From contig CBDCFN010000016.1 in assembly GCA_965216315.1 (NCBI GenBank), positions 128,001-192,000 of the forward strand: a stretch of DNA of 64,000 nt, written 5' to 3'. Below the pieces are notes generated by a model that made no database searches, had not been told where the DNA came from, and saw nothing but the letters and a program-made list of their open reading frames with translations. Numbering within the stretch: position 1 is the first letter of the stretch; every line of letters starts with the position of its first letter. The DNA is from a bacterium. Lineage in GTDB: Bacteria; UBA10199; 2-02-FULL-50-16; JAJFLM01. Below are positions 6,012 to 55,478 of this stretch, piece by piece. The position numbers and the translations under genes are program-made.

Positions 6012-6132
6012 TTTCTTGCCTATATATTGTGCACTGCGTCAAAAAGTTCGCAACTTTTTATCGAAGCGGACGAGCAAGGGCCGTTCCTCAAGAATTTGGA
6101 CAGTCATTTATTAATTTAGTGAAGGGGTGTGT

Positions 6133-6807
6133 ATGCCGGGAAGTGTTTATTTCAGTGTGGCGCAGGGCCAATTATTTGGATTTATGTCCGCGATGAGTCG
6201 GGTGGATGCTGCGCGGATTCAGACGGATCCGTTTGCGCTGACTCAATTGGATGGCAGCACCTATGCGCTCATGAATCCGGATACGACCGTGGCCTTGGAT
6301 GTGTCCCACCTGGCGGCGGCAGCGTATCTGTTTCGTCTGGGTGAGACCGAGGCCCAGTTGATCCGGGCCCTGGATGTCGAGCCCGATGACCTCACGAGGC
6401 ATGAAAATGCGGAACACCCGCTAATAGATTTTTTCGCCGACCAAGATCTCGCCTGGAAACGTTTGACTGAGTTCGCGCCGATCGCGATCGACGACCTGGC
6501 GGCGATTCGCTTGGCACGTCAGGCGGCCGATCGCAAATTGAGTCGCTGGGCCCGCGTCGTTGCGGGAGACCTCCAAACGCCTTCTATTGATGACGCGACG
6601 GAACAGCTCAATAAGGCCCTGGCCGACTTGAGCTTTGAGTGGCTGTATCGAATCAATGTCGCGCAGTTTGCGTATACGTTTGTATCCGATGATCCGCGGA
6701 AGGCACTCCGGGCCTACTACGATGAGGGGGTTCGGATCGAACGTCGAGACATGGTATTACGCGAAATTGAAGAATCTCTGCGTATTCTCGTCGGAAATGA
6801 CGGGTAG
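6133..6807 (+). CDS. Hypothetical orphan protein
   Basis: Fills the gap between sat and tldD; GCAAC-N16-CGAG upstream at 6050-6074. Confidence 0.65.
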   Translation: MPGSVYFSVAQGQLFGFMSAMSRVDAARIQTDPFALTQLDGSTYALMNPDTTVALDVSHLAAAAYLFRLGETEAQLIRALDVEPDDLTRHENAEHPLIDFFADQDLAWKRLTEFAPIAIDDLAAIRLARQAADRKLSRWARVVAGDLQTPSIDDATEQLNKALADLSFEWLYRINVAQFAYTFVSDDPRKALRAYYDEGVRIERRDMVLREIEESLRILVGNDG

Positions 6808-6845
6808 TCGTTGATTCTCTAGGATCTCCCCTATAGAATGGATTC

Positions 6846-8234
6846 ATGTTTTCCAAAGAGAAGGCGGCAAACTACCTAGGAACGGCCTTAAGCCAGGGAG
6901 GCGATTGGGCGGATGTCTTTGCGGAAGAGACCGTCAAACACCATGGCCTGCTCTCCGATGCCTCGATCAAGACCGTCTCGCAAAACCAGCTTGCGGGTGC
7001 CGGCATTCGCGTCGTCAAAGATCAACAAGAATATTACGCCTACACCAATGATCTCAGTGATGCGGGCATGCTCAAGATTGCCCGTGAAGTTGCGGACTCG
7101 ATTGCGGCGGAAAAGAAAGATGTTAAGATTGCTCTCGAAGCCGAGAGCCATGAACCTCAACACGATCCCCAACATTTTCCCGACAAGGTGACCTGGCATC
7201 AGAAGATTGAGCTGTTGCGCCAGGCCGACGAGATCTGTCGCGCCCAATCCCCGCAAATCGTCCAGGTCAACGTCGACTATGTCGATGAAACCCAGCGCAT
7301 TCTCGTTGCGAATTCGGACGGCTTGTTCAAAGAAGACGCGCGCACGCGCGGACGCTTTGCAGTCACGGCAGTCGCCGGCGAAGGGGACAACAAACAATTC
7401 GGTTACGAGGCGCCCGGGGCGCATAAAGGTTTTGAATTTTTTGAGGCCCTGGACGTCAAGGACATCGCTCAAAAGGCCGCCGAGACGGCATTGAAAATGC
7501 TCAAGGCCGACTATGCGCCCCAAGGGGAGATGACGGTGATTATCGATTCCGGTTTTGGCGGCGTGATCTTTCACGAGGCCTGCGGGCACGCCTTGGAGGC
7601 GTCGGCGGTCGCGCGCAAGGCGACGGTGATGGCTGACAAGTTGGGACAACAAATCGCGGCGCCCTGTGTCTCGGCCGTCGATGACGGGACGCTCATCCAT
7701 GAATGGGGGTCCAGCAATATTGATGACGAGGGCATTGTGACGCGACGCAATCTGTTGATCGAAGACGGGGTGTTGCGGTCTTATCTCGTCGACCGCCTGA
7801 ACGGCGAACGCATCGGGCTCGAGTCGACGGGCAGTTCGCGGCGTCAGTCCTATCGATTTGCACCGACCTCGCGCATGAACAATACCTTTATCCTGCCGGG
7901 CAAGGAGCACTTGGCCGAGATGATTGCGAATACCGAGTATGGTTTGTATGCGAAGAAGATGGGGGGCGGATCCGTCAATCCGGCGACGGGTGAGTTTAAC
8001 TTTGCAGTGCAAGAAGGGTATCTGATTCGCAACGGTAAGTTGGCGGAGCCGGTGCGCGGGGCGGTGTTGATCGGCCGTGGTGAAGAGATCCTGATGAATA
8101 TCGATATGGTCGGGAAAGAAATGAAGATGGCACAGGGCATGTGCGGGGCCGCCTCGGGTTGGGTCCCGGTCAACGTCGGTCAACCTGCCATCCGCGTGCA
8201 GAACCTGCTCGTCGGGGGTCAGTCGAGTGGGTAA
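6846..8234 (+). CDS. tldD: TldD metalloprotease subunit
   Basis: FHEACGHALE, DDEG, RMNNT, GMCG, VGQP. Confidence 0.93.
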   Translation: MFSKEKAANYLGTALSQGGDWADVFAEETVKHHGLLSDASIKTVSQNQLAGAGIRVVKDQQEYYAYTNDLSDAGMLKIAREVADSIAAEKKDVKIALEAESHEPQHDPQHFPDKVTWHQKIELLRQADEICRAQSPQIVQVNVDYVDETQRILVANSDGLFKEDARTRGRFAVTAVAGEGDNKQFGYEAPGAHKGFEFFEALDVKDIAQKAAETALKMLKADYAPQGEMTVIIDSGFGGVIFHEACGHALEASAVARKATVMADKLGQQIAAPCVSAVDDGTLIHEWGSSNIDDEGIVTRRNLLIEDGVLRSYLVDRLNGERIGLESTGSSRRQSYRFAPTSRMNNTFILPGKEHLAEMIANTEYGLYAKKMGGGSVNPATGEFNFAVQEGYLIRNGKLAEPVRGAVLIGRGEEILMNIDMVGKEMKMAQGMCGAASGWVPVNVGQPAIRVQNLLVGGQSSG

Positions 8235-9570
8235 AATCTTAGATCTTTTCGATGCCGCCCTGAGCGAAAAATCCGGACCTGAAATCGAACACATTCTGTT
8301 AGCGGGACATACCAACAGCCAACGCGCGGTGTCCCTCTACGCAGGCAAGATCGATTCGGTCGAGATCGCGGATGAGATCAAGATCGGCGTGTGGCTGCGC
8401 ACCAAGGGCCGCTGGGGGTGTGCGACCTTGGAACAAGTCGAGGCCGAGGCGCTTGATCGCGCGATCCAGCAGGCCGTGCTCGCGGCGGAGTTTAGTGACC
8501 CGGATCCGGATTACAGTCTCGCGCCGCCGGAAGAGGTCGCGACCCATTACGAGCCGGATGCCGCGATTCTTGAATTGGGCATGGGGGATTTCGAGGAGAT
8601 TGCGCACCAGATGGAGCAGCAGGCGCAGGACACCTCGCCCTTGATCAAGAACATTCCGCGTATTGGGTGCGGCTCGTCGAGTCGCTCGCATGTGATTGCC
8701 AATTCCGAAGGGGTGCGCATCATCGAGCGGAACAATTTCTTGAAGGCCGGTCTCTCGGTCATGGCCTGCGGCCCGGACGAGCGCATGGTCAATTGTTATG
8801 AGATCAATTATTTTCCCGACCGTGCCTCGTTTGATCCGCAGGGAACGGTCGCGGAAGTCGCAGAGGAAGCGGTGGCACGCGTGGAACCGCGCGGCGTCAA
8901 GAACGGAACCTGGCCGGTGATCTTCGATGCGCGCACGGCGGCGCAATTGCTGAGTACGTTCTCGAGTTGTTTCAGTGGCGATGCCCTCTATCGCAAGTTG
9001 ACGCGACTTGAAGGCAAGTTGGGGCAACAGATTGCGAGTGAGATGGTGTCCGTTGCCCAAAAGAGTTTGATCGGTTTGGTGCGCCACGCCTATGACGCCG
9101 AGGGAACGCCTTGTCAGGATAAGTATCTTATCCACCAAGGGCGCTTTGAGACCTTCCTTAATAATAGATACACGGCCAAGCGGAATCAGATGGAGTCGAC
9201 GGGTAATGCCGACGGGGCGATCGGTGAGGCGCCGGGTGTCGCACCAACCAACTTCTACTGGGACGCGGACGGCGTACCGGTGACCAATCTCTATGAAGAG
9301 ATGGGGACAGGCATCCTTATTAAGGAGTTACACGGGGCCTCGGCCTCGCCGATTTCCGGGGACTTTTCTTATGGGGGGCTTGGGTATTGGGTCGAGAATG
9401 GGAAGATCGATCATCCTATTGCGGACTTTACCATCGCGGGCAACTTCTTTGACTTGCTCAAGAACATCATCGGGTTAGGGGATGACCTGCGGTTCGTCTC
9501 GCCGCATGCTTCCGGATCCTGTGGGGGGCGCTCCTTGTTCGTTAAGTCCTTGGCGGTTTCGGGGAAATAG
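8227..9570 (+). CDS. pmbA: TldE/PmbA subunit
   Basis: YDAEG, SGDFS, WVENGKI, TIAGN; lacks HExxxH; directly follows tldD. Confidence 0.9.
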   Translation: MGKILDLFDAALSEKSGPEIEHILLAGHTNSQRAVSLYAGKIDSVEIADEIKIGVWLRTKGRWGCATLEQVEAEALDRAIQQAVLAAEFSDPDPDYSLAPPEEVATHYEPDAAILELGMGDFEEIAHQMEQQAQDTSPLIKNIPRIGCGSSSRSHVIANSEGVRIIERNNFLKAGLSVMACGPDERMVNCYEINYFPDRASFDPQGTVAEVAEEAVARVEPRGVKNGTWPVIFDARTAAQLLSTFSSCFSGDALYRKLTRLEGKLGQQIASEMVSVAQKSLIGLVRHAYDAEGTPCQDKYLIHQGRFETFLNNRYTAKRNQMESTGNADGAIGEAPGVAPTNFYWDADGVPVTNLYEEMGTGILIKELHGASASPISGDFSYGGLGYWVENGKIDHPIADFTIAGNFFDLLKNIIGLGDDLRFVSPHASGSCGGRSLFVKSLAVSGK

Positions 9571-9637
9571 GCGTCTCAAAATGAGACTCTTTTCAATTTA
9601 AACCATTCTATTTATTTGAATTTTAATGACATTTATT

Positions 9638-9653
9638 TGGCATCCGAATTGCT
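9638..9653 (+). promoter_or_regulatory. Sigma-54 -24/-12 promoter for ORF6N gene
   Basis: TGGCATCCGAATTGCT; palindrome GTCTCAAAATGAGAC at 9573-9587 upstream. Confidence 0.7.
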
Positions 9654-54817: not shown

Positions 54818-54839
54818 GGGCGCTGCCTGCTGCGCTCCT
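54814..54839 (+). repeat. GTAG-type REP-like palindrome
   Basis: GTAGGGGCGCTGCCTGCTGCGCTCCT; matches 1295-1318. Confidence 0.6.
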
Positions 54840-54849
54840 AATTAGCACA

Positions 54850-55233
54850 CTAACGGGATGCCTGTATATCTTGTAACTCGCGATCGTGGCGCTTAACGGC
54901 TCCGACTACCTCATCGAGTTTTAGCTCCATGCGGCCCAAATGATTGTCTACACCATTCAGGCGATTCTCTACACAGTCCAGGCGAGTGTCTACATCATTC
55001 AGGCGATTCTCTACGCGATCCAAGCGATCCTCTATCTTAGTGAATCGCATGCTGTGTTGATGCAGGACCCCCTCGATGACGTCAAAACGGGCATCGTGTT
55101 GAGCAAAACGCATATCCATTCGGTCAATCAATTCGCGGCGCCACTCAGTTACGGATTCCAGGACCAGATCCATCTTGGAGTCCATTTGTTCCAATACGAC
55201 AGCGACTTCTCTGGGAAATTTATCTTGAGGCAT
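54850..55233 (-). CDS. Coiled-coil heptad-repeat protein
   Basis: LDRVENR LNDVDTR LDCVENR LNGVDNH; AAAGGAG RBS. Confidence 0.75.
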   Translation of the reverse strand: MPQDKFPREVAVVLEQMDSKMDLVLESVTEWRRELIDRMDMRFAQHDARFDVIEGVLHQHSMRFTKIEDRLDRVENRLNDVDTRLDCVENRLNGVDNHLGRMELKLDEVVGAVKRHDRELQDIQASR

Positions 55234-55260
55234 ACAAGTCTCCTTTAACGCTGTCTAAGA

Positions 55261-55276
55261 AGCAAGATCAATGCCA
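55261..55276 (-). promoter_or_regulatory. Sigma-54 -24/-12 promoter
   Basis: Reverse complement TGGCATTGATCTTGCT. Confidence 0.7.
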
Positions 55277-55478
55277 ATTTGAGGGTTTTCGTAAGTGTGC
55301 GGAATGATGGAAACAGTTCTTGGGGATAAGTCGGGATTCGGTTTAAAAATGGAACGACGCGTTTCATATTAGCACGATTGTTGCTTCGAGTTATTTCCGG
55401 TGTGTACTGGCGTCAACATATAAGTAAGCCGTGTCCTGCTTTCTCGCAACTGCTAATGTGTTGCTCCGATGATGAGGT

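Follow-up and report, generated by a model that had tools for sequence, protein, structure and literature searches.

Motif sites and their genes in the window

The DNA analyzed here, called the window, is a stretch of 64,000 nt (G000:C16:128001-192000) from a bacterium of the UBA10199 lineage, whose genome (G000) has a size of 2.96 Mb in 16 contigs and is 98.3% complete. It harbors repeated copies of an exactly spaced bipartite motif, RCAAC-N16-CGA, found upstream of genes that mostly encode orphan proteins. A first, sequence-only reading had attributed this motif to a lineage-specific alternative sigma factor. The present analysis concerns the motif, the set of genes behind it (the regulon), and a FliA-like sigma factor encoded on the same contig within a type III secretion system (T3SS) cluster.

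In the window, RCAAC-N16-CGA has 14 matches, compared with 4.89 ± 2.15 expected from 100 dinucleotide-preserving shuffles (maximum 10, with none of the 100 reaching 14); the motif is thus commoner than in shuffled sequence. The eight sites of the sequence-only reading (6050+, 19586+, 26308-26331-, 27248-27271-, 38919+, 39902+, 41844+, and 55446+) are all present, as is an ACATC variant at 18977+, and every one of them lies upstream of, and co-oriented with, an open reading frame (ORF). Scored with a weight matrix trained on the whole genome, seven of the eight reach 16.9–22.6, and the ACATC variant 15.9. The site at 19586 has a low score of 13.6 because its -10 element reads CGAG, and was counted as real because an ATG 8 nt downstream begins a protein carrying the N-terminal tag described below. 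Two sites are absent from the earlier list: the top-scoring site of the window, at 12397 on the minus strand (24.1), and a borderline one at 11390+ (13.7). The four further matches (4186-, 10941+, 23119+, and 28041-) score 6.9–13.5, and we read them as probable chance background. The sites and the genes behind them are as follows:

6050..6076, plus strand: promoter-like site, score 16.9, about 57 nt before orphan gene 6133-6807 (GTG 6127 is also a possible start); no Pfam hit
11390..11416, plus strand: uncertain, borderline site, score 13.7, before small ORF 11454-11750
12371..12397, minus strand: top site of the window, score 24.1, reading GCAAC...GCCGATAA, before Gp49/HigB-like toxin gene 12048-12326(12380) and helix-turn-helix (HTH) antitoxin-like gene 11747-12046
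18977..19003, plus strand: ACATC variant site, score 15.9, 25 nt before orphan gene 19028-19510
19586..19612, plus strand: weak -10 variant, score 13.6, with an ATG 8 nt past the -10; orphan gene 19620-20723, whose product has the uncharged tag
26305..26331, minus strand: site, score 17.6, 30 nt before hybrid histidine kinase/receiver gene 24353-26275; uncharged tag in the first ~30 residues
27245..27271, minus strand: site, score 20.5, 24 nt before NAGPA-domain gene 26382-27221
38919..38945, plus strand: site, score 18.1, 18 nt before orphan gene 38963-39895; uncharged N-terminal tag
39902..39928, plus strand: site, score 21.2, 51 nt before orphan gene 39979-40611
41844..41870, plus strand: site, score 22.6, leaderless-type, with an ATG 8 nt past the -10; tagged orphan gene 41878-42549
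55446..55472, plus strand: site, score 19.8, leaderless-type, with an ATG 7 nt past the -10; orphan gene 55479-56597, product without the tag

The orphan character ascribed to these genes is borne out in the window, since six of the nine genes behind sites scoring at least 14 have no Pfam hit. For comparison, hits are lacking for 11 (at E 1e-3) or 16 (at E 1e-6) of the 56 window genes not preceded by a strong site. Gene 41878-42549 has no homologue in 80 other genomes of the lineage, and a single paralogue in its own genome, which is also found behind the motif.

The toxin–antitoxin pair that carries the best sigma-28-like promoter of the window belongs to a small mobile- or defense-looking islet (9668-14033), along with an ORF6N/Rha-like gene, a HicB-like antitoxin gene, and a Fic-domain gene. 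Elsewhere in the window, domains with a eukaryotic or chlamydial flavor are encoded at 21238-21567, 23389-24339, 28985-30586, and 32732-33421. They correspond to a SWIB/MDM2 protein, two DUF4215 cysteine-rich-repeat proteins (one with a weak Chlam_PMP match), and a protein with two LCCL domains. Finally, a glutathione block occupies the minus strand at 46183-53653 (gamma-glutamyltranspeptidase, GCS2-type ligase, glutathione synthetase, and hydroxyacylglutathione hydrolase), with an L,D-transpeptidase gene in between.

The motif genome-wide, its genes and the N-terminal tag

Over the whole genome, the two halves of the motif are held at a single distance. GCAAC-Nk-CCGA peaks at k=15 with 106 matches, compared with 19–52 at 17 other spacings, and GCAAC-Nk-CGAT peaks at k=16 with 149 matches, compared with 29–70 at other spacings. 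No spacing peak is seen genome-wide when GCAAC is replaced by GGAAC or GCAAG. A weight matrix was seeded with the 106 GCAAC-N15-CCGA sites and iterated; seeds and iterated matrix yield the consensus (A/C)(G/A)CAACTTTT-N10-(G)(C)CGAT(A/G)A. At a matrix score of at least 14, 341 sites are found, against 60–124 when the -10 block is shifted by 1–5 nt. With a cut-off of 16, there are 258 sites, against 17–58 in the shifted-spacer controls.

The consensus of E. coli sigma-28 promoters is TAAAGTTT-N11-GCCGATAA, whereas the motif found here is GCAACTTT-N11-GCCGATAA. Columns 19–26 of the matrix read G-C-C-G-A-T-A-A, which corresponds to the extended -10 box GCCGATAA. The arrangement of 8 nt, an 11-nt spacer, and another 8 nt, together with a T-run after the -35 core, is also that of sigma-28 promoters. 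The difference from the -35 box TAAAGTTT lies in its first five letters, which are GCAAC here. The canonical combination TAAA-N15-GCCGATA displays no spacing peak genome-wide, its 3 matches being at background level. As read from its letters, the promoter type is that of sigma-28 (FliA) in both geometry and -10 box, with only the -35 box differing. The likeness of CCGATA to a FliA-type -10 element, put forward in the sequence-only reading, thus stands. The likeness of AAC to a -35 element of the extracytoplasmic function (ECF) type does not, as these letters occupy the exact place of the sigma-28 -35 box.

Placement before genes is the second characteristic of the motif. Among the 341 sites, 228 lie at most 150 nt upstream of a co-oriented start codon that keeps at least 80% of the ORF, the proportions in controls with shifted spacing being 8 of 60 and 6 of 78. 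At 93 of these 228 sites, the start codon is found only 6–11 nt past the last A of the -10 element (CCGATAA), and it is an ATG in 82 cases. Distances of 6, 7, 8, 9, 10, and 11 nt are represented by 7, 18, 29, 9, 14, and 16 sites, respectively, with a peak at 7–8 nt. A Shine-Dalgarno (SD)-like motif precedes just 15 of 97 leaderless-type genes, as opposed to 58 of 112 regulon genes with leaders of at least 20 nt. Leaderless genes of a sigma-70 type do not appear as a general trait of this genome, as TATAAT-like hexamers show no comparable peak before the ATG codons of its other genes. Transcription from sigma-28 promoters usually starts about 6–8 nt past the -10 box. If it starts at this usual distance here, about 40% of the transcripts would be leaderless, and the position of the start codons does suggest that about 40% of the promoters give leaderless mRNAs.

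Taken with its spacing and orientation, this placement makes the motif almost certainly a promoter. It could in principle be the bipartite site of a transcription factor, for example of the TIGR02147/DUF4423 family, or belong to a dispersed repeat. Regulators of the DUF4423 type are numerous, two of them being encoded behind the motif, and several copies in a low-GC relative, G080, share identical flanks. But the spacer and flanks are not conserved among the copies of G000, the sites are not palindromic, and they match the sigma-28 -10 box letter for letter. Moreover, they are strand-specific and co-oriented with genes, lie at promoter distance, and show the ATG peak 7–8 nt downstream. A role other than that of a promoter is considered most improbable. 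In G080, near-identical copies of the promoter and the first ~15 nt downstream occur on many contigs (for example at C49:10877, C71:368, C73:3957, C161:5823, and C187:5253), which suggests a dispersed gene family or a repeat carrying the promoter.

With about 230 promoters, the regulon encompasses roughly a tenth of the genes and mainly encodes orphan proteins. No Pfam hit at E <=1e-6 was obtained for 72 of 99 regulon proteins; these 99, out of 227, represent the 20 leading genomic windows of a greedy cover and are therefore biased to clustered genes rather than random, and 64 fetched and 63 unfetched genes lie outside the scan. The matches include three patatin-like phospholipases, two Ser/Thr kinases (one of which belongs to a 1545-aa protein with an additional sigma-54-activator domain), a class III cyclase, an acyltransferase, an FGE-sulfatase-type protein, five Laminin_G_3 proteins, and two DUF4423 regulators. 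The claim that the motif does not precede housekeeping genes holds in the window but not strictly over the whole genome, where it is carried by panD, ribBA, and an amidase gene, as well as by genes for PFK-, RtcB-, and aminotransferase-domain proteins. The PFK, RtcB, aminotransferase-V, and cysteine-dioxygenase (CDO) domains begin only after an N-terminal extension. 

Two other parts of the same contig are worth describing. At least 16 motif sites are concentrated within a stretch of ~40 kb (G000:C16:2161665-2204282), where leaders are longer (36–145 nt) and several of the downstream products are paralogues with an alike Cys/Gly-rich N-terminus; of 16 products scanned, only one has a Pfam hit, to an FHA domain. 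At G000:C16:1741717-1746003, a 1428-aa protein is encoded behind a site scoring 20.2, with its start codon 6 nt past the -10; its N-terminus is Sec-like and not tag-like.

Many products of the regulon share an N-terminal segment, hereafter referred to as the tag. In an alignment of 62 N-termini, the first 25–30 residues are uncharged and rich in Ser, Thr, Ala, and Leu, and an hLA(S/A)(S/G) core is often found near residues 15–20. Between positions 2 and 25, the 101 leaderless-type products contain a mean of 1.3 charged residues, and 51% of them contain none, compared with 4.9 and 4.6%, respectively, for all 2453 ORFs. In their N-termini, K, E, D, and R are found at 0.2–0.35 of background, and S, A, and T at 1.4–1.6. 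A profile hidden Markov model of the tag was too weak as a detector (77 matches of at least 4 bits, mostly its own seeds, versus 5 in the reversed proteome). Composition criteria were used in its place: no D, E, K, or R in residues 2–22, and a peak 9-residue hydrophobicity below 2.4. Defined in this way, the tag is present in 103 of 227 regulon genes, versus 21 of the 1354 non-regulon genes whose start is supported by an SD motif (odds ratio 53). Accepting any candidate start outside the regulon raises the latter count to 147 of 2226 (odds ratio 11.7). A clear tag is found in the window in the products of 19620, 26275(-) (the hybrid histidine kinase), 38963, and 41878.

The tag differs from a Sec signal, which combines an n-region of positive charge with an h-region of some 8 or more hydrophobic residues. 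Its median peak 9-residue hydrophobicity is 1.65, versus 2.82 for Sec-like N-termini, and the median length of its longest hydrophobic run is 4 versus 8. Lys and Arg are lacking in residues 2–22 of the tag group by definition, and the first charged residue of tagged proteins is found at a median position of 30. The description of the downstream proteins as lacking classical signal peptides and beginning with Ser/Leu/Ala-rich extensions is thus supported statistically, by charge, tag counts, and hydrophobicity. Work on P. syringae has led to three rules for the N-terminus of T3SS substrates, namely the absence of acidic residues from the first 12 positions, a Ser content above 10% over the first 50, and an aliphatic residue or Pro at position 3 or 4. 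These rules are followed by 100% (by construction), 56%, and 68% of the tag group (n=106), respectively, and all three by 37% of it, versus 2% of other cytoplasmic-type proteins.

A FliA-like sigma factor within a T3SS cluster

The inventory of sigma factors suggested in the sequence-only reading revealed five sigma-70-family genes, encoding RpoD, RpoH, two ECF-type sigmas, and one FliA/WhiG-like sigma, in addition to RpoN. Compared with solved structures, the seven best of nine matches of the FliA-like sigma are WhiG or FliA proteins, with E from 3e-24 to 2.5e-13. No Flagellin_N domain, rod/hook C-terminal family (Flg_bbr_C), or FlgM was found in the 98.3%-complete genome. The sigma gene is located at C16:350511-351410, with a probable ATG start at 350583, inside a non-flagellar T3SS cluster and between sctJ and sctL/sctN. 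Upstream of it are encoded SctV, two FHA/YscD-like proteins, TPR proteins, and SctJ, followed by two small ORFs. Downstream are found a ~160-aa ORF, a FliG_C-like protein, SctL, SctN, SctO, SctP, SctQ (a FliM plus a FliN-type protein), and SctR/S/T. The Pfam hits of the cluster cover the core of a non-flagellar T3SS: FHIPEP, YscJ_FliF, FliH/SctL, T3SS ATPase, YscO-like, Flg_hook, FliM/FliMN_C, FliP, and Bac_export_3/1. SctU (Bac_export_2) is encoded outside the cluster but on the same contig, and a 989-aa secretin, possibly SctC, is encoded far from it.

Directly after sctT, two motif sites with scores of 21.7 and 22.7 precede a gene for a tagged orphan of 717 aa and four further orphan genes in a row. 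Next come a TPR chaperone-like gene and the only gene of the cluster with a match, a weak one (E 0.047), to the needle family (SctF). For the small ORFs of the cluster and the orphans after sctT, Pfam searches at E 0.05 gave nothing useful. The VipB family of type VI secretion systems (T6SS) and the VirB4 family of type IV secretion systems (T4SS) were not found in the genome.

The place of the sigma gene is conserved. A relative of the sigma factor is encoded in 47 loci from public metagenome-assembled genomes, deposited as 'Deltaproteobacteria' or under UBA10199 names, with 48–87% identity on re-alignment. In these loci, tblastn detected after the sigma gene the FliG_C-like gene in 43 cases, SctL in 40, and SctN in 39. 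Most of the misses are attributed to short loci truncated at contig ends; locus L052 is full-length, but its sigma relative is not an orthologue. The ~160-aa gene (G000:C16:351407-351895; L056:13407-13895) overlaps the stop codon of the sigma gene, and has the same place in 44 of 46 relatives' loci. Its product displays a variable N-terminal half and a conserved C-terminal helical hairpin. The AlphaFold model is all-helical with low confidence (mean predicted local distance difference test score of 55), and prediction of a complex with the sigma factor from two alignments gave no verdict either way (score 0.00). This protein could be of the rod or needle type, or else a partner of the sigma factor. 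A ~119-aa gene upstream of the sigma gene, also conserved in position, is the other candidate for an anti-sigma factor.

The sigma factor itself differs from canonical FliA where it would read the -35 box. In region 4.2, the recognition helix is SKSWTSRLH, as opposed to (T/S)ESRVSQ(I/L)H in the solved WhiG/FliA structures, the changes being E to K, R to W, and Q to R. In sigma-70-family factors, these helix positions contact the -35 box. The segment LSKSW(T/V)SRLH is conserved in all 46 orthologues (the 47th locus not being an orthologue), with V as the sixth residue in three of them. By contrast, region 2/3 resembles that of canonical FliA, in agreement with the unchanged -10 box.

In some members of the lineage, FHIPEP is represented by an additional, higher-scoring gene, and a second sigma-28-like gene is found as well. 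In G072 and G079, the product of the latter has a helix of the canonical type (TESRICQIH), and the G072 copy is situated ~1.4 kb away from the additional FHIPEP gene. Three genomes of genus g12 have another paralogue, of the SKSWASRLH type, as their second sigma-28-like gene. A second, flagellar-type FlhA was noted in some members (G072:C9, G079:C22, and others with 2–3 FHIPEP matches), and part of the lineage appears to be flagellated in addition to having the secretion system. TAAA-N16-CCGATA is not above control in five relatives that have a second sigma-28-like match, G072 and G079 with their canonical FliA among them, a count that is uninformative for a small flagellar regulon. From the two helix types, the secretion-linked sigma may be regarded as a distinct paralogue, whose changed -35 specificity would separate its regulon from the flagellar one. 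The motif described above is very probably the promoter of this paralogue.

The pairing of motif and sigma factor was also followed in 81 genomes drawn evenly from the phylum-level group, which cover 23 families beside that of the window and 66 genera. Exact GCAAC-N15-CCGAT is present in all 81, with 7–109 copies per genome versus 0–9 for the backwards-read control (56 versus 3 in G000). A FliA-like sigma with 56–70% identity is found in 80 of the 81, the miss being a genome that is only 73% complete, and FHIPEP is likewise found in 80. In G063, which belongs to another family, all 20 sites sampled (the first 20 listed) read CCGATA; about 8 of them are leaderless-type, and at least 5 of the products begin with the same tag-like segment.

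This distribution bears on the proposal that the promoter is read by one of the two ECF sigmas, with AAC at -35, CG at -10, and a 16-nt spacer. Two such sigmas do exist in the genome, and AAC-N16-CG is a generic geometry of ECF promoters. However, the -10 element is the full 8-nt GCCGATAA and not of the CGT type. No motif site lies upstream of any sigma gene in G000, including both ECF genes, and autoregulation is thus lacking. Nor are the ECF sigmas conserved together with the motif: matches to the two of G000 (E <=1e-10) occur in just 34 and 46 of the 81 genomes. Families f15, f16, and f18 have no ECF-like match with either query (0/4 each), yet they carry 24–74 exact motif copies per genome. 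Recognition by an ECF sigma was accordingly rejected and is held to be extremely unlikely. The sequence-only proposal of a lineage-specific alternative sigma factor co-expressing possibly exported orphans therefore keeps its core, which fits the sigma, motif, and tag data, and loses its ECF-type -35 element.

A candidate late-gene circuit and its relatives

The reading that we favor, and consider probable, is that the motif is the promoter of a sigma-28 (FliA/WhiG-family) paralogue driving a late-gene circuit of T3SS substrates and effectors. According to this model, the FliA-like sigma would read the canonical extended -10 box, while its helix SKSWTSRLH would read GCAAC(TTTT) instead of TAAAG(TTT) at the same distance. 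Transcription would start 6–8 nt past the -10, which at ~40% of the promoters coincides with the A of the ATG and would yield a leaderless mRNA. The uncharged N-terminal segment would serve as an export tag for the T3SS. The sigma factor would be made together with the apparatus, and would then turn on substrates and effectors, including patatin-like lipases, Ser/Thr kinases, the cyclase, and many orphans. Such a 'late-gene' switch, by which substrates would be made only while the machine is being built, would work along the same lines as flagellar class 3 genes and HrpL/hrp-box regulons. 

The regulon would be tied to secretion because of the fixed place of the sigma gene in the T3SS cluster, because two strong sites lie directly after sctT, because the VipB and VirB4 families were not found, and because the tag occurs on enzyme types typical of injected effectors. 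An effector or export reading of the tagged products is plausible, and a role in predation or host interaction may be inferred from it.

Several observations weigh against this model of a T3SS late-gene circuit. First, among the matrix sites of G000, none was found upstream of the FliA-like sigma gene or of T3SS structural genes; the secretion link thus rests on gene position, on co-conservation, and on the two sites at the end of the cluster. Second, over half of the regulon proteins lack the tag, and some have Sec or lipoprotein signals, are housekeeping enzymes or DUF4423 regulators, or form a toxin–antitoxin pair, so that the regulon is broader than 'effectors'. Third, the best NCBIfam model of the sigma factor, FliA_WhiG (TIGR02479), is matched at 133 bits, under its curated cut-off of 189.6. 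Motif enrichment is at least 4-fold in the lineage genomes except in G012 (10 versus 8) and G075 (11 versus 4), where it is weak, and among the first 20 listed sites of low-GC G080, most are not leaderless-type and their products are without the tag. Finally, the gene calls come from a crude codon-score ORF picker (2453 ORFs covering 91% of the DNA) with approximate start codons, the domain scan has the bias given above, and the terms 'promoter', 'leaderless', and 'export tag' are themselves drawn from sequence statistics.

Part of these observations would be expected if the promoter, although sigma-28-like, served a broad developmental or 'attack-phase' program rather than T3SS substrates. 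The tag would then mark another export route, a membrane or envelope association, or a processing site. A precedent exists in Bdellovibrio bacteriovorus, for which excerpts of Karunker et al. (2013; PMC3627812) describe the FliA motif TTAAG-N16-CCGATA at 92 of 140 attack-phase promoters, FliA driving most attack-phase genes, many of them non-flagellar. The lipoproteins, Sec-type proteins, DUF4423 regulators, toxin–antitoxin pair, panD, and ribBA of the regulon all fit such a program, as does the restriction of the tag to 103 of the 227 genes, and no T3SS structural gene has the motif, the orphans at the end of the cluster excepted. On the other hand, the sigma gene lies within the T3SS cluster in 39–43 of the 47 relatives' loci, counting those that show the downstream genes, and tagged orphans lie after sctT inside the cluster itself. 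The tag is too polar for Sec, and no T6SS or T4SS marker was found. Furthermore, domains that are typically cytoplasmic (kinase, cyclase, patatin, RtcB, and PFK) carry the tag as an N-terminal extension. We regard a broad program of this kind as unlikely, though it is the alternative to be taken most seriously.

The proposed T3SS late-gene circuit can be compared with four known systems. With the flagellar sigma-28/FliA–FlgM system, it shares the sigma family (by best matches), the -10 box GCCGATAA, the spacing of the boxes, a sigma gene that adjoins type III export genes, and, as proposed here, the switching on of export substrates. It differs in its GCAAC instead of TAAAG -35 box, its changed recognition helix, the lack of any flagellum or FlgM among the genes found, and its size, with ~230 promoters compared with a handful, many of them leaderless-type. 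Bdellovibrio FliA, in the excerpts cited above (PMC3627812), likewise reads a sigma-28 promoter driving many non-flagellar and uncharacterized genes. By contrast, this bacterium is flagellated, keeps the canonical -35 box, and involves no T3SS injectisome, and the word 'leaderless' does not occur in the main text of PMC3627812.

HrpL, from plant-pathogenic Pseudomonas, Erwinia, and Dickeya, is also an alternative sigma factor tied to a T3SS, with a dedicated bipartite promoter (the hrp box) before T3SS genes and effectors, as excerpted from PMC2957411. Unlike the sigma factor studied here, HrpL is an ECF sigma that uses another box and tens of promoters, and no sequence core of the hLA(S/A)(S/G) kind is present in its export signals. 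Chlamydia, a T3SS-bearing lineage without a flagellum, likewise keeps a FliA homologue, with late-stage expression. Excerpts of a ChIP-seq study of C. trachomatis sigma-28 (PMC12282069) report just two promoters, those of hctB and tsp, whereas ~230 promoters with a changed -35 box are found here.

A literature search judged by titles and the beginnings of abstracts found no description of this circuit. What is new compared with the known systems is a sigma-28 promoter and regulon with a re-tuned -35 box, an unusual number of genes, many of them leaderless-type, and an N-terminal tag common to many of the products. The change looks like a natural specificity swap, in which the -10 reading is kept and the -35 reading is altered by three helix residues, and the canonical paralogue in related genomes constitutes a built-in control for it. 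A promoter that is readable from sequence and tied to secretion would provide a catalogue of ~230 co-regulated genes per genome, with ~100 candidate exported proteins. Effectors of hrp systems have been found in a similar manner, by promoter and by N-terminal composition rules.

For this unstudied lineage, whose name 'UBA10199' is absent from the titles and abstracts of the literature matches examined, the catalogue predicts a life directed at a host or prey. More tentatively, and with some reservation, the whole lineage may run a T3SS late-gene circuit with a re-tuned sigma-28 paralogue insulated from flagellar FliA, many leaderless mRNAs, a sequence-recognizable export tag, and at least 100 injected effectors per 2–3 Mb genome, its members being obligate predators or parasites. 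Signals for T3SS export notoriously escape definition by sequence. With a conserved tag and leaderless transcripts together, one could test whether such a signal acts in the mRNA or in the peptide. If true, this would be the first T3SS signal with a definable sequence core, and it would mark the lineage as one of obligate predators or parasites.

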